A DNA stretch of 36,392 nt from a virus. The notes under the pieces are model-generated. The model did not search any database and was not told where the DNA came from. It worked only from the letters and a program-made list of their open reading frames with translations. Both the position numbers and the translations under genes were made by a program. Shown in pieces: positions 1 through 32,754 of this stretch; positions within the stretch are counted from its first letter, which is position 1, and each line of letters begins with the position of its first letter. The DNA lies in the IMG/VR virus record IMGVR_UViG_3300002307_000022, positions 108,585 to 144,976 of that record; one strand, written 5' to 3'.

Positions 1-745
1 CCGTCTAAGCATCCAGATCTTAAAGCAGGTTGTAGAAGCAAAGACTCGCAAGCTATCAGCTCGCTGGACTTTTGAATCTGCACAGGATGCACAGGCACAA
101 CAGGGTATCGATATCGAAGCTGAAATCATGGCAGCACTTGCACAGGAAATCACTGCTGAAATCGATCAGGAAATCCTAACATCACTACGTAACTTAGCTG
201 GTACTCCAACTGAGACTTACGATCAGGCTGCTGTTTCAGGTACTGCTACATTCGTTGGTGACGAACACGCTGCTCTAGCTGTTCAGATCAACCGTGTTGC
301 TAACCTAATCGCTCAGCGCACACGTCGTGGTGCAGGTAACTATTGCGTAGTTACTCCGTTCGCTCTAACTATTCTACAGAGCGCAACAACTTCAGCATTT
401 GCTCGCACTACAGAAGGCACTTTCGAAGCTCCAACTAACACTAAGTTCGTTGGTACTCTAAACAGTGCAATGCGTGTTTATGTTGATTCCTATGCACAGG
501 ATAGCACTTCAATCCTAATTGGTTACAAGGGTTCAAGCGAGTCAGATGCACCAGCATTCTACTGCCCATACATTCCTCTAATGTCAAGCGGTGTCGTACT
601 TGATCCAGCTACTTTCGAGCCAGTCGTAAGCTTCATGACACGTTATGGTTATGTAGAGCTTTCAAATGCTGCATCATCACTAGGTAATGCTGCTGACTAC
701 CTCGGTCTAGTAGGTATCACAAACGGAAACGTAAAGTTCTCTTAA
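1..745 (+). CDS. Major capsid protein, T4 gp23-like (5'-truncated by the window edge)
   Basis: Frame is open from nt 2 (RLSIQILKQVVEAKTRKLSARWTFESAQDAQAQQGIDIEAEIM...). It carries gp23-family motifs AKTRKL.ARWT.E.AQD, EI..EID.EI, IA..TRRGAGN, GYKG.SE.DA..FYCPY.PL and F.P...FMTRYG. Confidence 0.95.
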   Translation, partial: RLSIQILKQVVEAKTRKLSARWTFESAQDAQAQQGIDIEAEIMAALAQEITAEIDQEILTSLRNLAGTPTETYDQAAVSGTATFVGDEHAALAVQINRVANLIAQRTRRGAGNYCVVTPFALTILQSATTSAFARTTEGTFEAPTNTKFVGTLNSAMRVYVDSYAQDSTSILIGYKGSSESDAPAFYCPYIPLMSSGVVLDPATFEPVVSFMTRYGYVELSNAASSLGNAADYLGLVGITNGNVKFS

Positions 746-767
746 TTAACTTAGGAAAACAAATATC

Positions 768-796
768 AAAAGCGAGTGGAAACACTCGCTTTTTTT
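768..796 (+). terminator. Rho-independent terminator of the capsid transcript
   Basis: AAAAGCGAGTG-GAAA-CACTCGCTTTT: perfect stem, GNRA loop and a run of 7 T, 22 nt after the capsid stop. Confidence 0.9.
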
Positions 797-807
797 ACGA
801 CAGATGC

Positions 808-835
808 TTGACGTATAGATGTAATTTGTTATAAT
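808..835 (+). promoter_or_regulatory. Sigma70-type promoter with extended -10
   Basis: TTGACG (808-813), 16-nt spacer, TG-n-TATAAT (827-835); the ATG of the next ORF lies 5 nt after the -10 box. Confidence 0.75.
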
Positions 836-840
836 AAACT

Positions 841-1116
841 ATGATACCGCAAATTAAAGATCCAGAAGATTGGAAAACTGTGGAGACTATGCTCCGCAAT
901 ATGATCCGTAATATGCCGGGATTCTATCATGATTTCTATGCACTAAGTAAAAATATTGATAAAATGATTAAAGAACTTAGCCTAATTGATATAGAGCTAA
1001 GGAAAAGATATTCAACAACTTACAAAGAAAAACGTACAGCAAAGCTTGAAGAAATAAATGCAGTTATTCGTATGTTCTCAAAATATCATCTCCTAGCTAG
1101 TTTATCTAAACGATAA
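841..1116 (+). CDS. Small basic, probably helical hypothetical protein (91 aa), likely expressed early and leaderless
   Basis: Fills the gap between the terminator and the next late promoter. It has its own promoter and no SD, and its K/E/L/I-rich composition differs from the flanking structural genes. Confidence 0.75.
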   Translation: MIPQIKDPEDWKTVETMLRNMIRNMPGFYHDFYALSKNIDKMIKELSLIDIELRKRYSTTYKEKRTAKLEEINAVIRMFSKYHLLASLSKR

Positions 1117-3919: not shown

Positions 3920-4444
3920 ATGAGATTTTTAAAACAACAAAATTTAAATAAATTTCGTAGGACAGATGCTACTGTTTCCTACGATGCCAAGGGACAGATC
4001 AATCTAACTTCTTCTCTTAGTGTACTTTTGCCTAAAGGAACAACCCAACAACAACCATCTACTCCAGTAAATGGAGAGATACGGTATAATACAAGCACAA
4101 ACGAAGTAGAAGCATATTCGAACGGTGCTTGGAGAGCTTTTAGGTATAAAGAACCAACAGCAGTTACATATCAAACAATCGGAACTGGTGATTACGTTAC
4201 TACGTATTTTGGTCCACTTACACCTCCAAATCAAACCAACTATCCCAACAGCAATGGTATAACTGTATTTGGTACTAATTATGGTGCTAATATTATGGTT
4301 TATGTAGAAAATGTTTTCCAGCTATATGGTACAAATTACGTTCTAGAACAGAATCCTGTAGGATTTGCAGCAGGATGGTATTTGTCTTTTAATGAAGCAC
4401 CTCCTATAAAAGCTATAACTGTCATCTACGGATTTGACAACTAA
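3920..4444 (+). CDS. Virion structural protein (174 aa)
   Basis: Abuts the previous stop (TAA ATG). Contains the LP.GTT.Q.P..P..G.IRYNT....E.Y..G.W motif shared with the next two genes. Confidence 0.7.
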   Translation: MRFLKQQNLNKFRRTDATVSYDAKGQINLTSSLSVLLPKGTTQQQPSTPVNGEIRYNTSTNEVEAYSNGAWRAFRYKEPTAVTYQTIGTGDYVTTYFGPLTPPNQTNYPNSNGITVFGTNYGANIMVYVENVFQLYGTNYVLEQNPVGFAAGWYLSFNEAPPIKAITVIYGFDN

Positions 4445-4461
4445 CTCCTAATTTAAAATCT

Positions 4462-4469
4462 AATAAATA
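4462..4469 (+). promoter_or_regulatory. T4-late-like promoter box AATAAATA
   Basis: Intergenic, upstream of SD GGAG and the ATG at 4496. Confidence 0.65.
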
Positions 4470-4495
4470 TGTATGTCTAATTTTGGAGATACAGT

Positions 4496-6022: not shown

Positions 6023-6043
6023 TGAACATAATTTCCAAGGTAT

Positions 6044-6051
6044 GATAAATA
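6044..6051 (+). promoter_or_regulatory. T4-late-like promoter box GATAAATA
   Basis: Intergenic; followed by a ~95-nt leader before the ATG at 6149. Confidence 0.65.
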
Positions 6052-6058
6052 ATATTAT

Positions 6059-6145
6059 CGAGCATTAGATCAAAATGTCCGTGTCCAAACTGTGGTAAAC
6101 CCGCAATGCAAGGTGGTTAGCCGTGTAACTCGGTGGTTGGGAGAG
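6059..6145 (+). ncRNA. Candidate structured cis-regulatory 5' leader
   Basis: Hand-folded stems: 6062-6066/6074-6078, 6091-6095/6101-6105, 6121-6123/6131-6133, and a closing stem 6084-6088/6137-6141 that overlaps the SD-like GGGAGAG. About 53% GC over 6081-6148 in an AT-rich context. Confidence 0.4.
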
Positions 6146-6148
6146 TAG

Positions 6149-12396: not shown

Positions 12397-12424
12397 TTCA
12401 AACACATAATCTAGGAGAATTTTG

Positions 12425-15400: not shown

Positions 15401-18400
15401 ACATTCCCAGTAAGTGCTACACAGCAGTATACTAACTTAATTACTATTAACACTACATATCCACTATCAGTAGGTATGCCAGTTGTATTCAGTGCTGCTA
15501 CAGGACTTATGGCTGCTAACCAGCTGTTTTATGTAGCAAGTATAGTAAACGGTACGCAGTTTACTGTATCATCAACTAAGGGTGGTCCAGTGTATGTACA
15601 GAATACTACAACCGGTATTAGTGCTAACTTGTATCAGTCTACTACTAACTTGTATCTAAACCAACCACTAGTATTTTTCCCAACAGCAGCAAGTGCTACA
15701 ATTTCTAATGCTTCAAGTATTCCGACTGGTCTGACTAACATGGTATATGGTTATACAGTATACATTAACACTTTTAACAGTTTAATTTCGTTTACTATAT
15801 CACTAACACCAAACAGCTCATTACCAGGTGCTACAGCTACTACTTCAATTAGCTTGTCAAGTGCTGGTACTACTAACGCATTTGCGTTCTTACCAATGAC
15901 TAATAACGTAGCTTCAAACTTTGCTTATCAGTCTGCTCCTGTAGCAGTTACAGCAACTAGTGCCACAGCACCATACTTAATCACTTGTGCTAGCACAGCT
16001 GGTTTTGCTCTTGGACAACCTGTACAGTTTGATATAGCGATCGGTGGATTAGCTGTTAACACAACTTATTATGTATTAACTACTCCAAGTTCAACTACAT
16101 TTAACGTATCTACTACCCCGTTTGGTGGTGTGGTTGTGTTAACATCAGCAACTGGTAGTACCGGTAACGTATATCAGTCAACTGCTGGGTTAACAGTAGG
16201 TTCAGCTATACAGTTTACTACTGCAAGTTCATATCTTGGTTTGCCAACTGACACATATAAGACAGTAATTGGCGCAGCTTATAATTCATTATCAGCAGGG
16301 TTAACATTCTATATACAGAGTATACCAAGCTTTAACACAGTTATATTAACTCTAATAAACGCAAGCCCAGCATCTTTTGGTGCTGCAACAGGATACAGTT
16401 CTGGTGCTTCCATCGGTGGCTACGGTGGAATTGGTATGTTACCACTAGGCGTTGGTGCATTTACTGGTGCTACTTTATATAATGGTGTTAGCGGATTAAC
16501 AGTGACTGGAGCAGCAACTCCAGGTGCACAAAGTGGAGCTATGTATCTCAATACAATTAGCCCAACACCTCCTCTAGTAATTGGATCAACTACTGCAACA
16601 AGCAACTATTTCACTACACAGACTGTCAACGTTACTGCTGTAACTTCCGTAGGTAACTTAATTACCTGCGCTACTACACAGTATTTTTATCCAGGTATGT
16701 CTGTAGTGTTTAGCTCTGGTCTAGGAACTGGTATAGTATCGGGTACTGTTTACTACATATTAACCATTCCAAGCGCAACTACATTTACAGTATCTTCTAC
16801 ATTTAATGGTACAGTACAGACACAATCAACTACTACAGGTAATATAACTGTACAGCAGACTGCATTGTTCTTACAAGTAAATCAACCAGTTGTTTTCTAC
16901 GGAAAAATAGCAGCTAACCCAATCGTAGGTGTTAGCTTAGTGAGTGTTAGTTCGGGCGGTGTGTTAACTTTAGGTACCGCAGTTACATTAGCTGCTGGTT
17001 CTACTATTACTACAAGCTCATCATTAACTGTTGGTGCAACTGGTTTAATAGCTGGTCAGACATACTATGTCACAACAAGCGTTACAGCAAGCACTACAGT
17101 AACATTAAGTCTCACACTAGGCGGTAGTGCTATTTCTATAACTGGCGGTTCACCGACTGGTACATTAACAGTATCAATTATTGGATTAGTAAATGCACTA
17201 CCGGGTGTAACTTATTATGTAAATGAAGTTATTAATACAACATCATTTACGGTTAGCCAGTATATAAACGGATCTATATTTGCTCTACTTTCTGCAACTG
17301 CCACGCAGTTTAATGCGGTAACCGGTCCTTACAGGCAGTATAATATAAGTGCAACTCTTGCTGCGACTACTCCAAGCTTTACATTAGCAGCATTTGGATT
17401 GATTGGTACACAGTCAACTAATGGTACAAACTTAGCAATCGTGAATAATACTTTTGCTATGTATCCAGGAATGCCAATATCAATAGGCGGTACTTCGGGT
17501 GTATTAGTAGCAAATACATTATATTATGTGGTTAGTATATATGATCAGCATCGTGTTGTAGTTTCGATAGCACCTCCTAGTCAGTATGCTTCACCAAATA
17601 GTGTAGGTTATATTCCAACTACAAACAGCATCATTTACCAAACACCAAACGGTACTGCTTTACCGGTAACTACACAGATAGGAACTCAACCACTATATCA
17701 ATCAGCAGCTAAATTACAGCTTAACCAACCAGTTATGTTCTATGGTAACTTGGGTGGTATGACTGTAGCTTCTAACGCATTAGTAATTGGTAGGACTTAC
17801 ACTGTGGTATCAGTAGGTGACGCTACCTTTACTTCATATGGCGCGGCAGCAAATACTGTTGGTACAGTGTTTATAGCTACAACAACAGGCGGTGGTACTA
17901 CTGGTGTAGCATATAGCAGCTTCTTAAGCACTAGTGCGGTGTTGCTTCCAAATACTGTATATTATGTAAGTTCAGTTTCGGGCGCAGGTATTGGATCAAA
18001 CCAAGTAGCAGTTTCAGCAACACCAACGTATGCAGGAACTAACATTACTTCATATATCACAAGCGTTAGCATCGCTTCACCAGGTGTGTTTAGCACTTCA
18101 AACTTACCGTTTACACTAGTAGCTGGTCAGGCTATTACGATAACTGGTACAGCGGCTGCAACATTAGCTACAGGTAGTACTACTCCAAATCGTACATACT
18201 ATGTAACTAATATCAGTGGTTCTACTTTCTCACTAGAAACTTTTCCAGGAAACGGCGGTATACAGAATACAACTTCAACTAGCGTAAGTGGTTGGACGTT
18301 TGTACTAAATGGTATCAATCCAAACATTGCTGTTAACTTATCATCAGCAGGTCCAGCAGCACTCGGATTAGCAGCACAGGTAGCATCTACAGCACAAGCA

Positions 18401-20935
18401 ATGACAATGGTTCCGTTAATGAGCAATGTTACTGCACCGAACGTATTCCAAGCACAACCACTACCAATCGTAGCAACAAGCGGTAGCAGTGCTTATAGCT
18501 TTACAACTGGTGTAATGACTGTAGCTTATGCTACTTCAATTGGTTCTAACTTAATAACTTGCTTATCAACAGCAGGATTAACTGTTGGTATGCCAGTATC
18601 GTTTAGTGCTACCCTCGGTAACATTACAAGTGCAACTACTTACTACGTATTAACTGTTAATAGTGCAACTACATTTACTGTCGCAACTACATGGGGCGGC
18701 CAGGTATTAGTATTAACTAATGCTTATAACTACTCATATGTAAACGCATCAACTGCTAACTTAACAGCAGGACAGCCGATGGTGTTTACAGGATCAGTAT
18801 TTGGTGGTATCATAGCATATAACACCTATTACGTAGCAACTGTACTAAGCACAACTACATTTACTCTTGCTAACAGCTTGGCTGCTGCGATTGGTATCGG
18901 TGGTTCTCCAACTCTAGCACAGAATACTGCTGCAACAGGTTATATGTTAGCTTATGCAGCAACTGGTAGTACTACAACAACTGGTGCCGTTATTGGTGGT
19001 CAGAACTTAGGTGCAATGGGTACAGGTAACTATGGACTAGTTATAGGTCAACAGTATATGATCACTTCAGTAGGTTCTACAACTTGGACTACTTATGGTG
19101 CAGCTACAAGCACTGTAGGTACTATCTTTACTGCAACTGCACAGGGTGCAGCATACGGTGGTAGTGGTACATACAATATCGGTAGCACATCAGGCGCAGC
19201 AACTGGTACTGCTATCGAACTAGTAGGACTAATGGGTAATATGAATGCAAGCATTGGAGCAAATGCTCCAGCTATGTTTGCAGGTCCAACTATTACTGTA
19301 ACCGGAATCAACGGTACACAGCTTTATACACCAGGTAACACAAACTATCTAAGTGTTGGACAGGCTGTAGTGTTCACTGGTTATACTTTTATAAGTGGCA
19401 TCACAGCTGGATTAACTTACTACATACAGAGCGTTGTAAGCAGCAATGTGTTTACACTAAGCGCAACTAGTAACGGCGCTGCGTTAACATTTACTACTGG
19501 CAGCAACATACTAAGTATGCAGATCTTAAACAGCATCGGTACTAGCTTAATACCATATCAGACTTACTATACACAGAGTGTTCCAAACCCAATAGCTTGG
19601 AGCATAAGCAGCACTAACGTACAGGCTCCGGCTATTACCGTAAGCGCCACAGCATCTGGTACAGCTATAACTACTGGTGCATACACAGTAACAGCAGTTT
19701 CAGCAACTGGTAACTTGATTACTACTACAAGCACAGCTGGTCTAATAGTTGGCCAACCTATAGTATTCCCAACTAGTGTACTAGGTAACATTGTAGCAAC
19801 AACTATCTATTATGTGCAGACTGTTTACAGTGCTACACAGTTTAGCATAGCTACTTCTGCAACTGCCCAGGCATTTAATCCAGGAACTGCAACAGGTAGC
19901 GTAACTATGCAGATAGCGACTGCTAACTTAGCAGTAGGACAGCAGGTTAACTTCTCAGGCAACGTAGGTGCAAGCGGTATAGTAGTAGGAACTAACTATT
20001 ACATACAGAGCCTAAATGCTAACGGTTATCAGTTTACTGTAGCAAGCTCAGTAGGTGGTAGTGCGCTATCATGGACTGCTGCTACACTAACTAACGGACT
20101 AACTGCTAGCTTTGTAATTAATGCAACAGCACTTACAACGTCACAGACTGCAACTGTAAGTTATCAGAGCAACATATTAACACTTGCAACTGGTAGCAGC
20201 ACACAGTATTTGCTACCTAACCAACCAGTAGTGTTTACAAATACTAGTGGTGCTAACTGGAGCGGATTAAACACTCTACTCACAGTCGCAAGTGCTACTG
20301 TTCCGGCAGTAAGCTCAGCATATGTAGTTACTACAGTTACAACTAGTACCAACGTTATAACAATTAACTATGTAACTAGTAATACTGGAACTAAAACTGC
20401 TACTACGCTAATAACTGGTGCTTTCCCTGCGCTAACACTTAATCAACCGGTTGTGTTTATAGGAACAAACGTTGATAACTTAGTTGTTAACCAGACTTAC
20501 TATATACAGAGCATAACAGCTGCTACTGGTATTACAGTATCAACAACACCGGGTGGTGCAGCAGTATCTATAGGTAGTACTACTAGCCCAACTGCTGGTA
20601 CAATGCTAATGATTCCAGCATACTATGTGAAAGCAGTTACCGGTAGTAACACACTACAAGTATCAGCTACTCCAGGCGGCGCAGCAGTGTATATTCCAAC
20701 GTTCTATGCACAGGGTAATAACGTAGTACAGATGACTCCGATGCCACTAAACACAGACTTCATCTACGGTGACGTAGCTGTAGCTGCTCAGAGCCAAGTA
20801 ACTGCTAACGGTATATTAGTACCGCCAAACACTTACTTGTATGCTTCCGCAGGATTGACTGTATTTGGTTCCGGTACAGGTGGTTCAGCAACTGGTATGA
20901 ACGCAATAGCAATTGGTGTTCAGGATCTAGTATAA
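12425..20935 (+). CDS. Giant repeat protein (~2836 aa), putative adhesin or fibre appendage: a small cap domain split by a ~2,700-aa repeat insert
   Basis: SD AGGAGA (12413-12418) favours ATG 12425 over TTG 12422. About 26 copies of ST..L.VGQPVVF...G....[YF]Y[VI]..I.S.T.FTVS.T.GG; the two termini resemble the 103/109-aa paralogs. Confidence 0.8.
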   Translation: MTTAAKYGAQDLNGNPVNYQQLVNPANTGPSNVIVNTTFVNRTGTANKARLALSSTALVPQTVSSTQGLYPITANQTNNAASVETQQILTIGSTSSVTNAFTTAPITVTATTVGTNQIVCSSTVTLSVGQPVVFTSPIGGLQANINYYVLNIVSNTNFTVSNVWNGAIISLNGQTTNVLMYQSTANLAVGMPIQFHGTPFGNVVYNYNYYINTITSNNSFTVSIVAGSGTAVTLTTNALGTFAPFTAVPLTGTSFNPTINNPAALNVSNVVSATYNGIQGLSIGYANSSGNILSTAAININAIVAQNVASTPYNPVFIVCSSTLTLTTGMPIVFSATSGSITGGVVYYVSQIFSSIAFNISATPGGPVLPLSSTTPTGLTAQQATTFLQVGQPIVFNGSGTYGAGVANQAGVGGQVFGNLNVNTPYYVLTIPSATTFTVATTPGGSAVTLFTDGMNGTIITAGNFKIGQQYVIVSSGSTTFPGAGNNNQGTVFTATGPGSGTGTAMVCSSYVSGSGLVAGVTYAIGWLNTITAANIDTAAATAKSGSNVVVQGVSYSAIGTFSYANPTGSAAANTQAVSYFVSATTTSNAGVFIPINPMITTNAAHVSNPLTIASSSAVTNAFTVAAIAVSATTASTGYITCASTATLAIGQPVVFDTSFSTIVAGTVYYVLTVQSSTTFQISATQITSTIPSNSLYPLTTTTGQTVNMYQATTNLQVNVPMIFTGTAIGGVTAGQVYYVQNLLTTTVGGAVIPNSFQISTIYGGPALTLTTASGSMVATITPIVPTINVNASTASGSLTVGGTLGTYTNYLTTQYATCSATAGAAPYEITVNTTSWMSVGQPVVFSSVNTGTNVFASASIGSTNITAGTTYYVATIDSLTAFQVSATYGGAPVALGSTSQTMYVYQSTANLNVGQPVVFTGGTITDSALALNTTYYVNSVLGPAYFTVASTIYGSNLALTGGGTNINSVQIGPRPLMTISATVTSSGVTMMTFPVSATQQYTNLITINTTYPLSVGMPVVFSAATGLMAANQLFYVASIVNGTQFTVSSTKGGPVYVQNTTTGISANLYQSTTNLYLNQPLVFFPTAASATISNASSIPTGLTNMVYGYTVYINTFNSLISFTISLTPNSSLPGATATTSISLSSAGTTNAFAFLPMTNNVASNFAYQSAPVAVTATSATAPYLITCASTAGFALGQPVQFDIAIGGLAVNTTYYVLTTPSSTTFNVSTTPFGGVVVLTSATGSTGNVYQSTAGLTVGSAIQFTTASSYLGLPTDTYKTVIGAAYNSLSAGLTFYIQSIPSFNTVILTLINASPASFGAATGYSSGASIGGYGGIGMLPLGVGAFTGATLYNGVSGLTVTGAATPGAQSGAMYLNTISPTPPLVIGSTTATSNYFTTQTVNVTAVTSVGNLITCATTQYFYPGMSVVFSSGLGTGIVSGTVYYILTIPSATTFTVSSTFNGTVQTQSTTTGNITVQQTALFLQVNQPVVFYGKIAANPIVGVSLVSVSSGGVLTLGTAVTLAAGSTITTSSSLTVGATGLIAGQTYYVTTSVTASTTVTLSLTLGGSAISITGGSPTGTLTVSIIGLVNALPGVTYYVNEVINTTSFTVSQYINGSIFALLSATATQFNAVTGPYRQYNISATLAATTPSFTLAAFGLIGTQSTNGTNLAIVNNTFAMYPGMPISIGGTSGVLVANTLYYVVSIYDQHRVVVSIAPPSQYASPNSVGYIPTTNSIIYQTPNGTALPVTTQIGTQPLYQSAAKLQLNQPVMFYGNLGGMTVASNALVIGRTYTVVSVGDATFTSYGAAANTVGTVFIATTTGGGTTGVAYSSFLSTSAVLLPNTVYYVSSVSGAGIGSNQVAVSATPTYAGTNITSYITSVSIASPGVFSTSNLPFTLVAGQAITITGTAAATLATGSTTPNRTYYVTNISGSTFSLETFPGNGGIQNTTSTSVSGWTFVLNGINPNIAVNLSSAGPAALGLAAQVASTAQAMTMVPLMSNVTAPNVFQAQPLPIVATSGSSAYSFTTGVMTVAYATSIGSNLITCLSTAGLTVGMPVSFSATLGNITSATTYYVLTVNSATTFTVATTWGGQVLVLTNAYNYSYVNASTANLTAGQPMVFTGSVFGGIIAYNTYYVATVLSTTTFTLANSLAAAIGIGGSPTLAQNTAATGYMLAYAATGSTTTTGAVIGGQNLGAMGTGNYGLVIGQQYMITSVGSTTWTTYGAATSTVGTIFTATAQGAAYGGSGTYNIGSTSGAATGTAIELVGLMGNMNASIGANAPAMFAGPTITVTGINGTQLYTPGNTNYLSVGQAVVFTGYTFISGITAGLTYYIQSVVSSNVFTLSATSNGAALTFTTGSNILSMQILNSIGTSLIPYQTYYTQSVPNPIAWSISSTNVQAPAITVSATASGTAITTGAYTVTAVSATGNLITTTSTAGLIVGQPIVFPTSVLGNIVATTIYYVQTVYSATQFSIATSATAQAFNPGTATGSVTMQIATANLAVGQQVNFSGNVGASGIVVGTNYYIQSLNANGYQFTVASSVGGSALSWTAATLTNGLTASFVINATALTTSQTATVSYQSNILTLATGSSTQYLLPNQPVVFTNTSGANWSGLNTLLTVASATVPAVSSAYVVTTVTTSTNVITINYVTSNTGTKTATTLITGAFPALTLNQPVVFIGTNVDNLVVNQTYYIQSITAATGITVSTTPGGAAVSIGSTTSPTAGTMLMIPAYYVKAVTGSNTLQVSATPGGAAVYIPTFYAQGNNVVQMTPMPLNTDFIYGDVAVAAQSQVTANGILVPPNTYLYASAGLTVFGSGTGGSATGMNAIAIGVQDLV

Positions 20936-21012: not shown

Positions 21013-21035
21013 TGTAATATTGGTGATTGAAAATT

Positions 21036-22019
21036 ATGACAGATAACTTAACAAGATATATAACTCCTGGGTCAAATAACACTGTAAAATTCAAACAGGG
21101 CGTTTTAGCTTCTTATGAAGGAACTACACTCACAGTACAAACTAATACTGTTGTTGATAGTTTCCTATTAGGAAATTATTCTTCAGTTGATTATACTATA
21201 ACGGTTAATTTTGATTCAAATAAAAAAGAAACGATGCAAGTGCAAGTAATAGCCCGTTCTCAACAGGCTAGTGTTTTAATAAACAGCAGAGTCAGCATCG
21301 ATCAAGAGTTAATTACCCTTTCTGGAACAGTTAATAATAATACATTTACGTTATTAGCTTCAGTAACTGATCCTAGTTATAAGGGTGCAAAGCTTACATT
21401 CTTTGCTAATTATCTAGCAATAACATCACCGTTAACTACAACAGCCACTAGGGGAAGTATAACTGATTATCCTTTACCTATAGCAAGCACAAGCAATGTG
21501 ATATTCCAGCCTGTTGTTTCTAATACAGGATTTAAAAGTCCAGGATTTTATGTAGATTCAGCAGGTGTCTTAACATTAACTAATACTGCTAATCTAACCG
21601 GTAATGTAAATATACATCCTGCTGTAACAACAGGTACTATTGATAATGTAAATATTGGCGCTACTAGTCCAGGAACCGGTAATTTTACTTCAGTAACTGT
21701 GACTCAAACTTTTGGTATTAGTCCTTCAAATACAGGTAGTATTGATAATATAGTTATAGGTAATACTGTTCCTAAATCAGGAAAATTTACAAGTATAACA
21801 GCAACAGCAGGCGCAAGCATAACCGGTGATACTACTATGACTGGAAATACAACAGTAACTGGAAATACGACAGTAACTGGAAATACGACAGTAACTGGAA
21901 ACTCAGTAGTGACTGGAAATACGACAGTAACTGGAAACTCAGTAGTGACTGGAAATTTAAGTGTAGGTGGTACAGATATTAAACTATTAGCCATTGCGTT
22001 TGCTACGGTGCTAGGTTAA
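21036..22019 (+). CDS. Short fibre-like protein (~327 aa) with hexapeptide repeats and a hydrophobic C-terminal tail
   Basis: ATG 21036 preferred (SD GGTGA at 21022-21026). Two G.IDN..IG.T.P..G.FTS units, TGNTTV repeats and a C-terminal KLLAIAFATVLG. Confidence 0.75.
   Translation: MTDNLTRYITPGSNNTVKFKQGVLASYEGTTLTVQTNTVVDSFLLGNYSSVDYTITVNFDSNKKETMQVQVIARSQQASVLINSRVSIDQELITLSGTVNNNTFTLLASVTDPSYKGAKLTFFANYLAITSPLTTTATRGSITDYPLPIASTSNVIFQPVVSNTGFKSPGFYVDSAGVLTLTNTANLTGNVNIHPAVTTGTIDNVNIGATSPGTGNFTSVTVTQTFGISPSNTGSIDNIVIGNTVPKSGKFTSITATAGASITGDTTMTGNTTVTGNTTVTGNTTVTGNSVVTGNTTVTGNSVVTGNLSVGGTDIKLLAIAFATVLG
21840..21956 (+). repeat. 18-bp coding tandem repeat (6.5 copies, TGNTTV/TGNSVV)
   Basis: Units ACTGGAAATAC[A/G]ACAGTA and ACTGGAAACTCAGTAGTG; 21876-21911 is identical to 21912-21947. 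Confidence 0.95.
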
Positions 22020-25000: not shown

Positions 25001-28000
25001 AACGGCATGTTTTGGCAGTATGATGGAATAAGATTGTCAGTAGTAAAGCGTTCAAGCACTTTCCAAATTGCAGGATCTATTGCGCTAGCAACAAATTCAA
25101 ATCAAGTTTTTGGAACAGGCACTAGATTCACACAACAATTAGCAACTGGGGATCGCATAGTTATAAGAGGCATGACACACGTAGTTAGCTTGATTACTAG
25201 CGACACTAACATGAGCATCACTCCTGATTATAGAGGAACAGTTGATCTTACATCAGCAAAAGTCGCTAAAACAAATGATCTAATCGTGCCGCAAGAGTAT
25301 TTTAATAGAGACACACTTAACGGAAAAGGTGATAGTGGATACAATGTAGATATTACAAAGATGCAGATGATTGGAATACAGCACACATGGTATGGTGCGG
25401 GATTTATAGATTTTATGCTACGTGGATCTGATGGAAATTACGTTTTTGCACACAGATTCCGTAATTCTAATTATAACACTGAAGCATATATGCGTTCAGG
25501 TAACCAACCAGTAAGGTATGAAGTTATTAACGAAGGTGCTAAAGATAAATTATCAGCAGCAATTACTGCATCTGATACTGTATTACCTTTGACAAACACC
25601 TATTTCTTTCCACCTGCGGGAACAGTATGCATTGACTCTGAATTAATATCCTACACCGCTAATAATGGAACAGCATTAGTTGGCTGCACTAGAGGAACTA
25701 CACTAACACAATTTGCTGCAGGATCTAATAGAACATTCTCAGGAAGCGTTGCATCATCGCACGCATTTAATAGCGGTGTTATATTAGTATCAAATACTAT
25801 CACTCCTATCATTAGTCACTGGGGATCAGCATACATGATCGACGGACAGTTTGATAGTGATCGCGGTTACATATTCAACTATGCTGCTACAGGAGTTAAT
25901 GCTAGTACAAGTACCAATACTGCATTCCTAATACGTCTAGCACCTAGCGTAAGTAATGCACAGACTGGAGATTTAGGTGTACGTGAACTGTTAAATCGTG
26001 CGCAGATGTTGCTTTCAAACATATCTATCACTAGTGATTCAGTAAGTGGCGGCGGCGCAATAGTTGTACAGGGAATACTAAATCCTATCAATTATCCATC
26101 AGATCCAACACTAATTACTTGGACTGGGTTAAATTCACTAGGTGCTGGTGGACAGCCAAGCTTTGCTCAGATAGCATCAGGAGGTTCTGTTAGCTGGGGC
26201 GGTGGAGCAAGTACTGCTAATGCTACTGTGCAAGGTGCATTTACTAGCAGTATAACTGCTGTTAGCTTTGCTTCAGCTACTACTAACTTAACCGCAGTAT
26301 CATTTAGTCCTGTACAGCAAACAGTAAGTGCAGTTAGCTTTAATATTTTTAGCACTGGATCAGCTACTAGCTTTGGTATACAACAATCAGTAACAGCACC
26401 TGCTGTTACTCTAATACAAAATAGCACATATCAATTTGCTTTCCAAAACACAAGAAATGATTTCCTATTTCCGCAATCAGTATACGCTGCATTTACAACT
26501 CCGATCGCAGTAGGTGATGTTATATCTGTACCTACATATGTTACAGGCGCACAGACTATAGCAAGCATAACACCAAATTATATCACTATAAATTCAGTAA
26601 CATATGTGCGTATAGTAATGAGTGCAAATGCTAATGCGTCTAGCGCAACAAATACAGCAGTTTCTAGCATATTAATTACTAATCCAACTGGAGCAATATA
26701 TAACAGTGCGTTAAGCACAGGTAGGAATGATTTTCTAATACCTCAAACTACGTTTGCAGCATTTAGTCCTGCTGTAGTAGTAGGAGATAGATTATTTGCG
26801 ACAACTTATATTACTGCTGGGCAGACTATAAATTCTATAAATCAAAACTATGTCACATTAGCTGGTGTAGCGTATTGTCAGATAGTTATGAGTGCGATTG
26901 CTAACTCAACTAGCACAGCTAATACTTTAAATAGTGTCGGAGCTCAAAATATTACTGTGACCTTTACTAATGCATCGAGCTTCACTTATAACAATGCATT
27001 TAGCTCATCGAGATCAGATTTCTTAATAACTAACACTGCATATGCTGCACTTACTACTACATTAGCAGTGGGTGACATTGTTAGCGCCAGCTCGTATGTA
27101 GGCGGCGGACAGACTATATCAAGCATAACCTCAAGCTATGTTACATTTAATAGTATACCTTATACTAGGATTGTAATGAGTGCAAATGCTACTAGCACTA
27201 GTCCAGCAGCTGCTACTACAAACGCACAGAATATATCAACAACGATTACTAACGCATTAAGTAACACATATAATACAGCAGTAAGCCAATCTAGGACAGA
27301 TTTCCTAATAACGCAAACACAATATGCAGGAATATCTATCGCAGTTACTGACGCTTTAACAAATGCTACATATATTAATACTGCACATTCTATATCAAGT
27401 ATAACTCCAAATTTTGTTACTATTTCTGGAACAGTATATGCTAGGATTGTAATGAGTTCTCCTGCAAATACTACATCAACCGGCGGAACGGGTAATAATA
27501 TTACTATCGTAGCAACTTCCTCATCAACAGCTACATATGGATCAGCATTAAACAGTACTAGGTCTGATTTCTTAATTACTGACGCTCAATATGCTACGAG
27601 TGGTATATCAACTAGTGATATTTTATCATTAAATACCTTTATCACTGGTTCACAAACTATATCAACAATAACCCAATCATTCGTAACAATTAATTCGGTT
27701 AGTTATACTAGGATAGTTATGAGTGCTGTTGCAAACTCAACCAGCACTAGTGGTGCAGGACAGAATCAAACTATTACTGTAACTGCTGCTGGTTCTGCAG
27801 CTACTTACGTTAGCACTAACTATCTATTCTTTACTTCAAGTAGTTGGTTAACATCAAGTGCTACGCTTGGTACTAAGTTAGCAGTTTCTTATACACAGTT
27901 TCCAGCAGGAACATCAGTAGCAGCAGTTAGTTCTAGGACATTTAACAGTGCTATTAGCACCGTTACAAACGCAGCAAGTTCAGGTGGAGGATCTACTGTA

Positions 28001-28489
28001 ACTTATACTTTAACAGGTTCAAGTATATATCCTGTAGGGTCAACAGTTACAGTTAGTGGAATAACAGGCGGTACTGCTATGAATGGTACTTTTGTAGTAA
28101 CATCGAGCGTAGCCGGAACACTAATCGTAACTAGTACTGGATCAGGAACACCTAGTAGCTATTCCGGCGCATCTGTGGTAGGTGCTACTGTTTATCGTGC
28201 AACATTTACACAGACAGCAAACACAACTATCTCAGCTGGAGCAACACCTACATTCCAGTTTGGTGCTGCATATGCACTACCTGGAGAACAGGTATTCTCG
28301 TTCGTTAATAACCCGGGAAATACTGATCAGCTAGATCTAAGTGGATTGAAAGAAATGACTTCAACTGCTATTGGCGGAAGAGGTACATTCCCTAATGGTC
28401 CGGACGTTTTAGCTATCAATGTTTATAAAGTTAGTGGATCAGCAACACCAGTTAACGTAATTCTACGTTGGTCAGAAGCACAGGCTTAA
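22049..28489 (+). CDS. Large multidomain virion protein (2146 aa), putative fibre or adhesin
   Basis: N-terminal MAKK....Y.F.P / LIITNTTRN.ILYNF module, HG[FC]..G small beta domains, G.GY repeats, a lectin-like middle region (WYGAGFIDF...HRF), and five ~90-95-aa repeats near the C-terminus. Confidence 0.75.
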   Translation: MAKKQILTYKFVPGNSTPTTSLYPNARFLINANKKFIQEEAIAYVQNNVANNIQPYTSYVYDANLLRTEISNTLDGFTNDLRHGANTLTVFNANQYWKYGVELVVASPLAATYSYISNMIRNYILTNTDFNNLQTTVSQVINNAYVSETASYSAFSALSLIITNSILSGTSTIPAIINDRGYIKLSGNYHQNDMLIITNTTRNTILYNFADPSSPTEITYTDTYDSDFPGALYGNDKVSTVWLDYDTSNMLLSDDIQVFVEVENLPVRLNPIATDAMERMKVGIPQSMLDADFEYGLQPTKWQTIGLMRNYPSIYEIPNSDQTVINVTTDASSGNTGNAGASLITVTTQNSHGFSVNQPFTIKALAVSVSGFNRAEGSFLVNSIPSANTFTYYAKSKVGTNSGDIISTNYTQLRTGAFYTGAAVGTPQFSVYSNGSSGTITTSLITPTGSNTIAFTGTPPLVGAPLSGTGIATGTQITSVSGSGSTVATTSLSVTANIGDSSITVNSATGIGTGLAINRGDGRAAIVTNVVGNTLTLSTALTSTILGSSQSFPSQTPTIISGSGVGAVFDIARVSDTVYSASIVSAGTGYKTNDVLKVLGTNLGGSSPANDATITVLTASNRNSVASLDLNTINPGQGYYYNTYNTVAYTGSGSGLTVQVTDLIVTFNDGNGNVQYGIKNLSIVNPGSGYAIGDYIQIGIDTDFHGGQVTIATVSAGGLIQSVSVAGTPISIGLVSFISAFTINTPTTSQIASGNTGITYSAIPTIQISFQPAHGFIPGDTITVQITSSDTNAQLAAGAFFVEQVPSPTTILYTARAAGTIANTLTGFVYGRPDSYFIHRPFDGGVQLGTGGPAHGATAIRMSKKYIRYQSGKGVMYNTGALFAPSYNIASITSTGTAIGSIITVTMDDVDHGCQVGGSIDLSGVNTSGYNGNYIVFSIITERVLTIIAKQVLGNTSALIGNPCVLSVRNWHGATVRAGIFDDQNGMFWQYDGIRLSVVKRSSTFQIAGSIALATNSNQVFGTGTRFTQQLATGDRIVIRGMTHVVSLITSDTNMSITPDYRGTVDLTSAKVAKTNDLIVPQEYFNRDTLNGKGDSGYNVDITKMQMIGIQHTWYGAGFIDFMLRGSDGNYVFAHRFRNSNYNTEAYMRSGNQPVRYEVINEGAKDKLSAAITASDTVLPLTNTYFFPPAGTVCIDSELISYTANNGTALVGCTRGTTLTQFAAGSNRTFSGSVASSHAFNSGVILVSNTITPIISHWGSAYMIDGQFDSDRGYIFNYAATGVNASTSTNTAFLIRLAPSVSNAQTGDLGVRELLNRAQMLLSNISITSDSVSGGGAIVVQGILNPINYPSDPTLITWTGLNSLGAGGQPSFAQIASGGSVSWGGGASTANATVQGAFTSSITAVSFASATTNLTAVSFSPVQQTVSAVSFNIFSTGSATSFGIQQSVTAPAVTLIQNSTYQFAFQNTRNDFLFPQSVYAAFTTPIAVGDVISVPTYVTGAQTIASITPNYITINSVTYVRIVMSANANASSATNTAVSSILITNPTGAIYNSALSTGRNDFLIPQTTFAAFSPAVVVGDRLFATTYITAGQTINSINQNYVTLAGVAYCQIVMSAIANSTSTANTLNSVGAQNITVTFTNASSFTYNNAFSSSRSDFLITNTAYAALTTTLAVGDIVSASSYVGGGQTISSITSSYVTFNSIPYTRIVMSANATSTSPAAATTNAQNISTTITNALSNTYNTAVSQSRTDFLITQTQYAGISIAVTDALTNATYINTAHSISSITPNFVTISGTVYARIVMSSPANTTSTGGTGNNITIVATSSSTATYGSALNSTRSDFLITDAQYATSGISTSDILSLNTFITGSQTISTITQSFVTINSVSYTRIVMSAVANSTSTSGAGQNQTITVTAAGSAATYVSTNYLFFTSSSWLTSSATLGTKLAVSYTQFPAGTSVAAVSSRTFNSAISTVTNAASSGGGSTVTYTLTGSSIYPVGSTVTVSGITGGTAMNGTFVVTSSVAGTLIVTSTGSGTPSSYSGASVVGATVYRATFTQTANTTISAGATPTFQFGAAYALPGEQVFSFVNNPGNTDQLDLSGLKEMTSTAIGGRGTFPNGPDVLAINVYKVSGSATPVNVILRWSEAQA
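26420..27790 (+). repeat. Five ~90-95-aa protein repeats (Y..A....R.DFL ... QTI.SI...YVT.....Y.RIVMS..AN.TS)
   Basis: R.DFL anchors at about 26453, 26723, 27011, 27293 and 27560. Confidence 0.9.
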
Positions 28490-28875: not shown

Positions 28876-29313
28876 TTATTTGTCAACCATCAGATCCAGC
28901 ATTTCAAAGATCGTATCTAATTTAGCACGTATGATTTTACTGCCTACTGTGTTTTTTATACCTTGATGTACTGGCCTCGGCCAATGATCCATTTCGCACC
29001 ATGCCCATCCCTTGTGCTCATCACTGAGTACAGGAACAAATTCTTCTTTAACGATGCACACATATGTTTGGAAATTAAAATGTTCATCATCGCTTACAAA
29101 TGTTTCTAATGGTAGTGACTTTAATGTATCTGGAAAAGCACCTATCTCTTCGATAACTTCTCTCTGTAGAGCCTGCCAAACCGATTCGTTGGGATTGACT
29201 TTACCGCCTACTAGACCCCATACTCCCTCTTTTTTACCTGAGGCTTTTTGTAAAAGTAAGAATCTTTTTGTAGATCTGCTGAGGAACAGTGCTCCACTAC
29301 TCTTTATCTTCAA
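28876..29313 (-). CDS. NUDIX hydrolase (~145 aa)
   Basis: Nudix box GGKVNPNESVWQALQREVIEEIG and downstream LSDEH..WAW. The start is better placed at TTG 29313, which overlaps the upstream TGA and has SD GGAGGA 7 nt before it. Confidence 0.9.
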   Translation of the reverse strand: MKIKSSGALFLSRSTKRFLLLQKASGKKEGVWGLVGGKVNPNESVWQALQREVIEEIGAFPDTLKSLPLETFVSDDEHFNFQTYVCIVKEEFVPVLSDEHKGWAWCEMDHWPRPVHQGIKNTVGSKIIRAKLDTIFEMLDLMVDK

Positions 29314-30679
29314 AGAACAATCCTCCAAGATCCTGCAAAGTACTCACCGTCAATGCTCTTGGTCCAAGATATTCCATCCCATTTATACTGTATCTGTGTT
29401 TTTAGATTTAACACATAAGTTGTGTCCGTTGCAGTTTGACCATCAAATACTATATTCCATTTGTCGCCGTCCCATTCTATTATATCGTTTCCGTTAGCAT
29501 AAAAATCAACACCACCTCGGCTTCTCCAAGCTGACGGTCCAGTTCCTTGGGGGTTAGTATTACTTCCTATAGCACCTAGAATTAGATACCTAGTGCCTGT
29601 AACTATATTACCCGGAGCATATTTTGTAGGATCAACTATCGCATCTATAGTACTCTTTCCGCTTATGATAGTATTCGTTGGATACGTATCTGGATCCCAG
29701 TTTACTAGCATTACGCTGTTATCTACAGGATCGATACTACAAGTACCAACTACATCATATCCTGATGCCTGTTTGAGGTGTATCTGACTTACGCCTGCTT
29801 TAAATTCTCCATATAGATCTAATAATGCAAACCAACTAGTATCTAACCCGTATTTTACATTTGGTTCTATAGCAGTGTGGCTTATGTTTTCATATCCGGC
29901 TAATAATTTTATCTGATTAGCCATAACAAACACACCGAAATTTCCTGGAGTTACATTTACTCTAGCAACAGGTTCACCAAATAAGAAATTAGGATCTATA
30001 ACACCAGTAGAATTTTCAGAAAATATATTAGTGATAATACTAGTAATAACACCAAGTTTTTTCACTTTGGCTGGCGGACTTATCCATATAGGAGTATCAA
30101 ACCCTAGCGTTGATATTTCTATATCGCTATCTACTCCGACAGGAATTGATCTATTACTCCACTGTACTTCAGATAGATAGACAACAGTGAGGCTAGTCCA
30201 GTCTATATAATTGTCTGTAGTTTGTATTTCTAAGCTAGGATTAAACAGCTGTACTATCTGTTCTATAATCTGCATCTTCTGTTCGGTGTTAGTAGACCAT
30301 ATGTCTGCTTTTACCCTGAGATTAAATGGCGTGGGCATTATCCTCTCAACGGTATAATTTTGACCTTGTGTGTTAGTATACTGTCCTGTTACAGGATCAA
30401 TACCTCGCTCTCGAATTTGTATATTTTGTGTATAACTAGCATCTTGCAGACGTTTAGTATCTAGAGTTAGTCCAGTTACATATACACTTATCCTAGGTGC
30501 GCTAGGTAGTTTATTTTCACTATTATCTCTTAATATACTACTAACGTTCCTGCTGATATCTCCGTAGAGTACAGGAACTGTTTTTAATGTACCGTCGCCA
30601 GCTTGTACTTTAAACCCACTGAGCATCCTTATCATCTGTGATAGATAGCGCCTTAGCTGGCCGTCATAAAAAAATCCAC
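29310..30679 (-). CDS. Tail completion / sheath stabiliser, T4 gp15-like, with C-terminal extension; start anomalous (GTG 30679 needs a -1 shift, first in-frame ATG is 30635)
   Basis: FFYDGQLRRYLSQMIRMLS, VPV.YG, PR.S....GL..D..R, P.P.NL.....IW.......QI.EQI..LF.P match gp15-family motifs; gene order neck then gp15 is as in T4. Confidence 0.75.
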
Positions 30680-30682
30680 TGC

Positions 30683-31237
30683 TTACCCTCCAGATTTGCG
30701 ACTAAGCGCCTTAGTAGCATGGGCTTGTCTTCTATTTGCAGCACCTTCAATGCCATAAATTTCTTCCCAAGTCATACCTTGTTTTTTACCTTTATTTGAC
30801 GATGTTCCGCCCTTATTCGGATGAGTTTTTCCTAACATTGCTCCGCCGTCTTTTCTTATCCAAGTATCAGTGCCCAGTTCTCTTCGCTTTGCGTGAGCAT
30901 TTTTTTGAGCTATACTCATGCGTTTTATACTTTCTAGATTATGTGTTTTATTATCTCCAGGAGTCCTTATATTAAATCCGTTATTAATAGAATCATATTC
31001 TATTACATATTTTTCTTCTAAAATATTTAACTCTTCTAGAGAGACAGCATTTTTATCTATCACTTCAAAGATAAAAGAATCAATACCATATTTCTTTATA
31101 GCATTATGAAAATGATAAGTTTTTTCACTATATCTACTACCGCTAATATGTTCTAATCTACGATGGTTAGGATCTTGTATAGTTTGACCTATATAAGAAC
31201 GCCCCGAATCTATATGTGTAAACTTATAGATATACAT
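30683..31237 (-). mobile_element. Free-standing GIY-YIG (Seg-like) homing endonuclease gene, 184 aa
   Basis: YIY(10 aa)YIGQT, R..EH, FHNAIKKYG..F.FEVI, LEE..[VI].....NGFN catalytic-domain motifs; basic NUMOD3-like tail (KTH..ESIKRMS, MLGKTH). Inserted between two structural genes. Confidence 0.88.
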
Positions 31238-32754
31238 TAAAAATCTGCCCTAGGTAATAGCGCCTTGCTAAGTGCTTGGCGTTCAGGTATACTGTCACTG
31301 TATATAGTCCAAGATATAACATCGCCTACTAATAAAACATACTGTGTTTGGAAAGCTAGATATCCGTCGACACTTGTTGGCGGGTTTGTTGGCATATTTG
31401 TCTCGTTTACGAACACTTTAACATTATATTTCTTATCATAACTTGTCCTAGTTGTAACGAGACTATTTTTTAGATCTACTTCAGCAGTTGGTGAAGTTGG
31501 ACCAAAATAACGAGCAGGATTAGCTATCACGGTATCTCTAGCAATAGCATTAAGACCTGTAATATTTGTATTATTAATAAATCCAGTTTTTTGTGTCGCT
31601 CTAGTATCTGTTTGTGTCATAGTCATTGCCACATTATCCTCAAACACTATCCATCTTTTACCGTCATATCTAAACATCCTGTTTGGTAGATAGTCTGTCC
31701 TTAGATAAAAATCACCAGTAGCAGCAACTGGAGGAAATGCTATACCAAACCCAAAAGGTAATCCATTAGGCGGATAACCTTGTCCAAGCATATAGCCTTG
31801 GTAACCAGGCTTTAAAGGAGGTGGATTAACTACATCTATTGATTGACTGCTATCGATAGGAATATCTGTATTGTCTACCGTAAGAAGTGAACTCTGTCCT
31901 TTATCGTTTAATGCTAATGTATAATAATTATTGGTGTTGTAACCGCTTACCGGAGCATTAGATTCTGCTTCAGTTACTACACCTTCGTTAAGCAACATTT
32001 CGATATTATATGAACTCATCATAGAACGTAAATTATTACTGGAATCTTGCGGAGAAAAATAGCTTTCATTTGGAGGATTTACACCTGTACATTGTGCAGT
32101 AACAGTATACAAGATGCCTGCTGATTTGACTGTTTGTCCAGGATAATAAGTAGTAGCAGCATTATATGTACCAGCATAATTGTCTGTGTTGCTCGGCATA
32201 TCTAGTATATCTTTAAATTCTTGGCTATCTATGATAGGTTTAAGTTTTAATCTATAAAGATGTGGATACCAAGTGACTGAAAATCCTTCAGCTGCTCTAT
32301 TGATATCTTCAACTACATAAAATCTTTTTAATCCGTAAGCAAAACTGTTAAGAGCATAATCGTCAATTAAATGTGGAAGTTCTATCACATCGCCGCTCAT
32401 AACTTTCCTACCTAGCGTCTCTACGCTATTATTAATATGGATAGTCATAAAGATCGTATCGTTTTGTAAAAATAAACCAAACTGGCTGAGATTAAAATCT
32501 ATGTCTTGTACGTTATAGACTCCTCGCATTACATATACTGTCTGATCGTACTTGCGATCTCTATTTTCTAGAAAAAGTACATCTTGTATAGTAGTTGGGC
32601 TAGTTGCTTGATCTGGGTTAGCAGGATCTGCGGGACCGATATATTTGTGGAAATAAACATCTGTTCCGCCAACTTGGAACTGTTCATAGACAGTTTTGTC
32701 TATAAATTTGTAGTCATTACCGCGTTCAGGTTTATAATTTGAAAGTCTAGGCAT
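31237..32754 (-). CDS. Neck / head completion protein, T4 gp14-like, with insertions (505 aa)
   Basis: G.DV...., D.LFLE....KY, LSQFGL...D.....H and GD.I.LP resemble gp14-family motifs; located upstream of the gp15-like gene. Confidence 0.6.
   Translation of the reverse strand: MPRLSNYKPERGNDYKFIDKTVYEQFQVGGTDVYFHKYIGPADPANPDQATSPTTIQDVLFLENRDRKYDQTVYVMRGVYNVQDIDFNLSQFGLFLQNDTIFMTIHINNSVETLGRKVMSGDVIELPHLIDDYALNSFAYGLKRFYVVEDINRAAEGFSVTWYPHLYRLKLKPIIDSQEFKDILDMPSNTDNYAGTYNAATTYYPGQTVKSAGILYTVTAQCTGVNPPNESYFSPQDSSNNLRSMMSSYNIEMLLNEGVVTEAESNAPVSGYNTNNYYTLALNDKGQSSLLTVDNTDIPIDSSQSIDVVNPPPLKPGYQGYMLGQGYPPNGLPFGFGIAFPPVAATGDFYLRTDYLPNRMFRYDGKRWIVFEDNVAMTMTQTDTRATQKTGFINNTNITGLNAIARDTVIANPARYFGPTSPTAEVDLKNSLVTTRTSYDKKYNVKVFVNETNMPTNPPTSVDGYLAFQTQYVLLVGDVISWTIYSDSIPERQALSKALLPRADF

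Follow-up and report, generated by a model that had tools for sequence, protein, structure and literature searches.

Sequence of the gene and of its repeat array

The stretch of DNA analysed here (the window, 36,392 nucleotides) corresponds to positions 108,585 to 144,976 of the IMG/VR virus record IMGVR_UViG_3300002307_000022 and covers the structural-gene region of a T4-like cyanomyovirus, with open reading frames (ORFs) that match the major head protein, the tail sheath, tail fibres and virion structural proteins. One of its genes codes for a large fibre-like protein whose C-terminal region carries a series of short strand motifs followed by a series of repeated bodies (Table 1). In our view it is very probable that this C-terminal array consists of recursively nested small beta-barrels, each of them inserted after the first strand of the next outer domain. 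We favour this reading because the equality of copy numbers, two AlphaFold2 models and covariation agree.

When the protein was used in a tblastn search, matches were obtained in 85 phage records, mostly from Synechococcus phages. It shares 47% identity with SXBG_00214 of phage S-CAM1, from residue 181 to the C-terminus and in three pieces that make up 60% of the query, and 44% with a virion structural protein of S-CAM3, while its N-terminal two thirds are about 34% identical to S-PM2p175. The counterparts in S-CAM1 and S-CAM3 have a tail-fibre gene on one side and the neck gene gp13 on the other. Significant similarity of profile and sequence across the conserved central part places the protein in the group formed by phrog_5838, S-CAM1 SXBG_00214 and S-PM2p175, and from the annotation of these relatives it is probably a virion protein. 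When the whole protein was scanned against Pfam (E <= 0.1), the only match was a sub-threshold one to the sheath domain Gp18_dom_I, which lies outside the array.

The initial annotation, made from the sequence alone, had described five motifs (ITAVSF, LTAVSF, VSAVSF, GSATSF and VTAPAV) spaced 11-12 residues apart and followed by exactly five repeats of about 90-95 residues. These motifs are found at residues 1402, 1414, 1426, 1437/1438 and 1448 (nucleotides 26252, 26288, 26324, 26357/26360 and 26390), with spacings of 12, 12, 11 and 11 residues, and five repeats, with a measured length of 88-96 residues, come directly after them. Each body opens with R.DFL (residues 1469, 1559, 1655, 1749 and 1838) and closes with RIVMS, or QIVMS in one body (residues 1521, 1611, 1707, 1799 and 1888), and the pairwise identity among the five bodies is 41-53%. 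The flanking segments GGQPSFAQIA (residue 1367) and ALPGEQVFSF (residue 2076) also lie where they had been placed. The protein has four matches to [TS]A.SF, all of them inside the same 40 residues; in 2,000 shuffles of the protein the mean number of matches was 0.25, and in none of the 2,000 did four fall inside 40 residues. The fifth motif had been regarded as the weakest match, which holds for the window protein. Nevertheless, VTAPAV is the contiguous first strand of body 1, and since the motifs of many homologues end with a clean TAxSF that runs into body 1, it is a true member of the series. Tandem Repeats Finder detected no DNA-level tandem repeat in positions 25900-28489; as no repeat is left at this level, the duplications should be old.

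Three further points had been overlooked. A sixth, diverged body (B6) is found at residues 1904-2075, with an insert of its own of about 80 residues, and with an additional strand (s0) it would form one more, outer level; each domain appears to have a trailing strand; and the whole array seems to lie within one loop of a C-terminal jelly-roll, which is thereby split. In Table 1 and below, s0 to s5 are the strands in the order of the chain, B1 to B6 the bodies and D1 to D5 the domains to which B1 to B5 belong.

Table 1. Positions of the gene and of the elements of its C-terminal array, and ranges of the two AlphaFold2 models over which PDB chains were aligned; pairings of strands and bodies are as predicted
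Feature	Residues	Nucleotides	Strand	Remarks
Whole gene	2,146 aa	22049..28489	+	phrog_5838 'virion structural protein', E 1.2e-239
Jelly-roll, N-terminal half	~1273-1386	25865..26206	+	ends with the GGQPSF loop
s0, outermost strand	1387-1398	26207..26242	+	pairs with B6; DSSP strand at model residues 119-122
s1 unit ITAVSF	1399-1410	26243..26278	+	first strand of D5; DSSP 130-135, pLDDT 87-93
s2 unit LTAVSF	1411-1422	26279..26314	+	first strand of D4; five chains over 142..554-556
s3 unit VSAVSF	1423-1434	26315..26350	+	first strand of D3; 4jmq_A over 154..465
s4 unit GSATSF	1435-1444	26351..26380	+	putative first strand of D2; DSSP 166-174
s5 unit VTAPAV	1445-1456	26381..26416	+	contiguous first strand of innermost D1
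B1 and trailing strand L12	1457-1545	26417..26683	+	HMM body 1; strand 269-275 ends ranges 273-276
B2 and L23	1546-1640	26684..26968	+	HMM body 2; then strand 360-371
B3 and L34	1641-1734	26969..27250	+	HMM body 3; range 154..465 ends past strand 460-465
B4 and L45	1735-1824	27251..27520	+	HMM body 4; ranges 142..554-556 end past strand 549-554
B5 and L56	1825-1914	27521..27790	+	HMM body 5; range 128..645 ends past strand 638-643
B6, first part	1915-1965	27791..27943	+	matched by eye to the S-CAM1 and S-CAM3 insert of 105-110 aa
FCCH-like beta-barrel in B6 loop	1966-2048	27944..28192	+	7sol_A over 700..779
B6, second part	2049-2075	28193..28273	+	continues the S-CAM-type body; 9in6_M over 118..807
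Jelly-roll, C-terminal half	2076-2146	28274..28486	+	jelly-roll alignments end at the last residue
s5+B1, five-body model	176..273			6e0v_A (phi92 gp150 residues 708-791), Z 7.2, rmsd 2.2, 77 residues
s3+B3, five-body model	154..465			4jmq_A (T5 pb9), 75 residues
s2+B4, five-body model	142..554-556			7w1c_A (Z 7.1), 8ram_O, 8ftm_B, 24qj_A, 8jov_1; 68-80 residues
s1+B5, five-body model	128..645			8fth_A, 78 residues
s0+basal body B6, five-body model	118..807			9in6_M, 75 residues
Jelly-roll, five-body model	1..877			Ena1B, KHP40 cement protein
s3+B1, three-body model	154..255			6e0v_A
s2+B2, three-body model	142..348			two chains, rmsd 1.9-2.1
s0+basal body, three-body model	119..519 and 120..519			9n71_B, Z 8.1, rmsd 2.3
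Jelly-roll, three-body model	1..593			Ena1B, Z 8.7
aa, amino acids; HMM, hidden Markov model; pLDDT, predicted local distance difference test score; rmsd, root-mean-square deviation (Å)

Numbers of motifs and bodies among homologues

Searched against a database, the C-terminal 807 residues yielded 534 homologues, and the counts given here rest on the best 120 of these 534; additional, more distant forms came from an exhaustive search of cluster representatives. A search of viral contigs for trimmed homologues gave 8 loci, and full-length database proteins were aligned instead. Bodies were counted with a profile made from the five window repeats, and motifs were read between the QGAF anchor and the first R.D. 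The initial annotation had predicted that the two numbers should be equal in homologues, and they were, in about 125 proteins with zero to five bodies, wherever both could be parsed. In all of the three-body proteins first parsed (48/48), body 1 is preceded by exactly 47 residues, which hold three motifs; the number of motifs rises to four in proteins with four bodies and to five in those with five. At the lower end of the series, P0137 combines one body with one motif, P0131 and P0135 have two of each, and the forms devoid of bodies are also devoid of motifs. The length of the region before the first body follows the number of bodies N (Spearman 0.978, n=120), with 33-35 residues at N=2, 48 at N=3, 58-63 at N=4 and 69-83 at N=5, and these steps overlap only in one three-body protein with 58 residues.

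Eight proteins appeared to be exceptions, with four bodies and three motifs or six bodies and five motifs in the raw HMM counts. Reading of the sequences ruled out that these raw counts breach the rule of equal numbers: in each case one body is interrupted by an unrelated domain, and the split body had been counted twice. A third type of domain (GxAGQFxC ... ITISG) was observed, in one or two copies, in a loop of the innermost body of P0074, P0080, P0120 and P0130, and in the last body of P0091, P0096, P0114, P0110 and P0117; because it is inserted in the body, the profile counts a body that bears it twice. As to the motifs, a regular expression with loose anchors mis-counted 14 proteins through misplaced anchors or degenerate motifs. 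Since automatic counts mis-scored degenerate motifs, we relied on the length of the region and on reading the sequences.

It could be argued that the bodies are complete, autonomous domains in tandem, like beads on a string, that the motifs form a separate beta-meander or a flexible linker, and that the equal counts are a by-product of duplication. Bodies 2-5 do have a strand of their own in front of them, and when the repeats are simply aligned this strand lines up with the fifth motif. However, independent arrays would be expected to drift, whereas equal counts were found over N=1-5 in about 125 proteins without intermediates.

Predicted structures and covariation

Residues 1270-2146 of the window protein were modelled with AlphaFold2 from an alignment of 35 five-body homologues (mean pLDDT 79; 80-95 in the array), and a second model was made of the three-body homologue L007, from another viral contig, with an alignment of 52 three-body homologues (mean pLDDT 84.5; 92-97 in the array). 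The pairing of strands and bodies was read from the first and last model residues of structural alignments with PDB chains, taking the 50 best matches of each comparison. Single PDB domains, with 67-80 residues, were aligned over long ranges of the models with an rmsd of 1.9-3.0 Å and Z values of 5.1-7.4. As shown in Table 1, these ranges open within 1-2 residues of a short strand assigned by DSSP and close just past the strand that follows one given body. For s5+B1 in the five-body model, 8eci_2, 4jmq_C and 8hqz_H were each aligned over 175..276 as well. Taken from the outside, the ranges of this model are concentric: 1..877 > 118..807 > 128..645 > 142..555 > 154..465 > 166..371 (putative) > 176..273.

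Anti-diagonal contacts between strands and bodies had been proposed as what a structure prediction should reveal, and anti-diagonal pairing was obtained in both models, as read from the discontinuous aligned ranges. The models thus predict domains built from non-contiguous segments that flank another complete domain (A1-B-A2), and inserted domains that would themselves host further insertions over several levels. The claim that strand k completes body N+1-k agrees with the copy numbers, the models and the covariation, except that the nesting would go one level deeper than had been claimed, with s0 and B6 on the outside. Each domain would own the strand trailing its body as well. That s4 pairs with B2 is deduced by elimination and from a weak covariation signal (s4-D2 is the row maximum in the five-body alignment). 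A parallel arrangement, in which strand k would pair with body k, was ruled out by the last strand running into body 1 and by the anti-diagonal association of motif and body subtypes.

Covariation was computed without AlphaFold2, but on the same homologues that fed its alignments. A total of 105 homologues with three to five bodies were pooled, their three outer shells being aligned by position from the outside, and blocks of strands were compared with blocks of domains by mutual information with average-product correction (APC). The anti-diagonal blocks (s1 with D(N), s2 with D(N-1) and s3 with the third domain from the end) scored +0.007 to +0.010, whereas the other six combinations of strand and domain did not exceed +0.001, and all three anti-diagonal maxima were retained in 147 of 150 bootstraps. 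The strongest block was that of s2 with D(N-1), and s3-D3 was the maximum of its row. In shells 1 and 2 the same positions covary, namely the x of TAxSF with the residues right after R.DFLIT. Separate runs for each alignment pointed weakly in the same direction.

The bodies read as autonomous tandem domains can be weighed further at this point. It speaks for them that the structural evidence for nesting is prediction only and that DSSP is silent on the partner of a strand. Against this, in both models single PDB domains span strand k and body N+1-k, the covariation is specific to the anti-diagonal, and in the structural matches the strand ahead of each body goes with the preceding body and not with the following one, so that we consider plain tandem domains improbable.

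Conservation also varies along the nested array. The last body of each homologue has its closest counterpart in body 5 of the window protein, the penultimate one is usually most like body 4, and the first two motifs are the best conserved of the series. Conservation of the bodies therefore follows the position from the C-terminal end and that of the motifs the position from the N-terminal end, as would be expected if the outer shells are the oldest. The outer shells appear to be stable, with variation concentrated at the junction of motifs and bodies, that is, in the innermost domain. Columns with R, D, F, Y and M are invariant in every body across hundreds of homologues. Such position-specific conservation argues against an unstructured spacer of low complexity, rich in Thr, Ser and Ala, glycosylated or flexible and over-interpreted by AlphaFold2. 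Although S, T, A and N abound in this region and it has no Pfam match, pLDDT values reach 97, solved domains of phage tail and decoration proteins superpose with an rmsd of about 2 Å, and the motif array was not reproduced by shuffles; a spacer of this kind is thus very hard to credit.

At the base of the array, single jelly-roll chains of about 100-140 residues were aligned across the entire models. In the three-body model, Ena1B (7a02_A) gave a Z value of 8.7 over 102 of 112 residues with an rmsd of 2.7. Other jelly-roll matches were 7dou_4 (Z 7.8, 107 of 124 residues), 1stm_A (Z 7.9), PRD1 P5 and 4-1BBL (Z 6.6-7.2), together with the KHP40 cement protein and capsids of satellite viruses and nanoviruses. 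The models thus predict that the base is a single jelly-roll of the viral capsid or TNF-like kind, split in two, and the likeness is one of fold only, because the Z values are near the ceiling of the background. Within the family, conservation is highest in its C-terminal half: of 151 representative clusters obtained, most matched only there. In L008 (791-2551) and P0122 a three-body C-terminal module is fused to unrelated upstream sequence just before the AIVVEG strand. These fusions suggest that the jelly-roll and its array may be exchanged as a module between different virion proteins.

A jelly-roll base allows for another arrangement, a domain swap within a trimer, where the outgoing strands of one subunit would complete the barrels of its neighbour and lace three arms together. 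Base folds like those of TNF and capsids often form trimers (PRD1 P5, 4-1BBL, the KHP40 cement protein, Pgp3), the prediction of a monomer is blind to the difference between pairing within a chain and swapped pairing, and a swap would account equally well for the equality of copy numbers and for the covariation. However, the last strand continues directly into body 1 and the links between successive strands have only about 6 residues, which makes pairing within one chain the geometrically simplest solution, and every barrel is closed with high confidence in both monomer models. We therefore regard a swap as unlikely and nesting within one chain as the better account of the array.

The basal body B6 shares 16-26% identity and a similar pattern of residues with B1-B5, and it is the counterpart of the sole body present between the GGQPSF and PGEQVF.F anchors in S-CAM1 and S-CAM3. 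One of its loops holds a barrel of 83 residues, for which the UBA6 chain 7sol_A gave Z 9.1 and an rmsd of 1.9 over 75 residues, and nearly all of the 26 chains at Z >= 8 were UBA1 or UBA6. The UBA1 FCCH domain and the barrels of the K1F and phi92 endosialidases matched the B6 insert with Z 7.3-7.7. Since the Pfam scan of the whole protein (E <= 0.1) gave no sequence-profile match to PF16190, we call the insert FCCH-like in fold and not a member of PF16190. The loop that holds this barrel is not the one used by the nested array. Three-body homologues lack the barrel, and some homologues with four or five bodies have it (P0010, P0016, P0053). Inserts of about 380 residues were observed in P0141, P0143, P0144 and P0153, where bodies of the basal type (YFT..SW ... 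KFPAGT ... YY.VTF) seem to be nested at the loop that holds the FCCH-like barrel in the window protein. This lineage would be a second, independent site of nesting in the same family and, together with the foreign inserts found in relatives, it suggests that nesting is a habit of this family of proteins.

Several observations weigh against the nested arrangement. The structural support is prediction and not experiment, and both models come from one predictor, which draws on the covariation that was also measured here. Pairing was inferred indirectly, from the end residues of structural matches, and among the matches listed there was no row for s4+B2, including those of a second look dominated by the FCCH-like barrel and the jelly-roll. 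For s1+B3 of the three-body model no good direct row was obtained, the only one being 9qgy_G over 131..437 with an rmsd of 7.9. The predicted template modelling scores (pTM) of 0.52-0.61 do not establish the relative arrangement of the domains, and hence the straight stalk. Part of the anti-diagonal covariation could be produced without contact by the swapping of concentric central segments between phages. The search of PDB sequences with the window protein gave no match. Degenerate inner motifs were counted partly by eye, and a position matrix for which three-body proteins served as the training set gave no over-counts of motifs, but too low counts in four- and five-body proteins. Finally, the function of the array is wholly a matter of inference.

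Proposed architecture and known parallels

If the models are right, the chain would leave the jelly-roll through one loop, make an excursion of about 690 residues (1387-2075) within a C-terminal region of about 880 residues, and then return. On its way out it would contribute one strand to each successive domain, from s0 to s5, and each level would take up about 12 residues. The innermost barrel, s5+B1, would fold at the far end as the presumed tip, and the return leg would complete the outer barrels in the order B2/s4, B3/s3, B4/s2, B5/s1 and B6/s0, while the closing strand after each body would adjoin the outgoing strand of its own domain. The domains may stack as a stalk with two legs and both ends at the base. 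With both ends there, the module could occupy a surface loop, and its length could change at the tip with the jelly-roll left undisturbed. The stalk may be straight and projecting, and the earlier suggestions of an extensible stalk and of each copy having been inserted into the previous one are reasonable.

The jelly-roll may represent the distal knob of a fibre-like virion protein, and the array may serve as a spacer whose length can be adjusted, or else as an adhesin arm showing the variable innermost domain. An arm on a distal knob is suggested because the jelly-roll resembles domains that often trimerise and because the gene lies among fibre genes. As a tentative proposal, possible but with slightly more speaking against it than for it, one barrel would have inserted itself repeatedly after its first strand, giving rise to the series of zero to five levels, and the result would be a rigid, two-legged stalk in which the number of levels sets the reach of the tip to the host surface.

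Repeat proteins are rarely built by recursive insertion, but it is already known from Si3, the insertion in the trigger loop of the beta' subunit (RpoC2) of cyanobacterial RNA polymerase. The chain of Si3 folds back on itself, discontinuous domains make up four of its eight SBHM domains, and AlphaFold matched the solved structure to 1.08 Å (PMC10895346). A 2026 survey of insertion architectures describes Si3 as a six-level recursive insertion and most insertions as single-level (PMC13114784). Like the phage array, Si3 has copies of one small domain of beta-barrel type in a loop of a host domain, several of them assembled from distant parts of the chain, and its module is elongated, with about 150 Å. 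Its SBHM domains are probably of a different family, and they have varying split points and connections, four of the eight being continuous, whereas in the phage array every level would be split alike, after one strand, the depth ranges from 0 to 5 among close relatives, and the host is a virion protein and not an enzyme. Three points set the phage family apart: the uniform split point, the strands stacked ahead of the stacked bodies, and the existence of close relatives with depths from 0 to 5. The 50 best matches of each structural comparison included no RNA polymerase or SBHM chain, a result that holds for the matches listed.

In periplasmic adaptors such as MacA and AcrA, the chain runs out through a row of domains and back, so that an N-terminal piece and a C-terminal one together form each domain. 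MacA chains were aligned over the nested span (5nik_D over 130..645 and 9qgy_G over 131..437, Z 5.5-5.8), and the likeness is topological only because the rmsd is poor (7.9-8.3 Å). Adaptors differ in having mixed folds, no repeats of one domain, no series of copy numbers and no sequence relation to the array. In streptococcal antigen I/II, equal numbers of N- and C-terminal repeats pair in anti-parallel fashion (A3 with P1, etc.) and form a fold-back stalk with a tip domain, but in that stalk an alpha-helix is wound with a polyproline helix, no barrels are completed by strands, and there is no homology. For single levels the best matches in fold are phi92 gp150 708-791, T5 pb9 89-170, the tail-tube decoration of phage Mystique and Bridgette 8eci, a chain of 124 residues. 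These barrels of phage tails, matched over 67-77 residues (Z 6.4-8.1, rmsd 1.9-2.9), are likewise accessory domains of virion proteins; they differ in being single or in plain tandem, the identity is 10-19%, and the Z values may reflect a common fold only. A literature search on nested domain insertion in phages found no paper on this module.

If the nested reading is true, the family would offer the cleanest known case of recursive self-insertion as a way of expanding repeats, with living intermediates at every step. Repeats usually grow by tandem duplication; here they seem to have grown by nesting, with depths from 0 to 5 all surviving. As relatives exist at every depth, the steps of recursive insertion could be compared directly, unlike in Si3 of RNA polymerase. 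For protein design, a module with both chain ends at its base would be a model for a stalk of adjustable length in a surface loop. For annotation, N short strands followed by N bodies make up a signature that is easily searched, where ordinary repeat finders would read a linker and a tandem array. As regards cyanophage biology, the module lies C-terminally in a large, fibre-like virion protein that is encoded in a cluster of tail-fibre genes, and its innermost domain and added inserts, being the most variable parts, are candidate determinants of contact with the host.

Around the gene, a 2,837-aa ORF (12422-20935, +) had no PHROG match and is separated from the 2,146-aa gene only by an ORF of 330 aa. 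Fibre-like ORFs of 174, 508, 496 and 330 aa (3920-7639 and 21027-22019, +) have in common a module of about 60 residues that matches phrog_2803, 25721 and 1325, families of unknown function; the 330-aa ORF matches phrog_7964 and 5070. Downstream, a homing endonuclease gene of the GIY-YIG type (phrog_314/7168/5123; 30683-31237, -) lies between a gene similar to tail sheath or sheath-stabiliser genes (29310-30635) and a virion structural gene (31237-32754).

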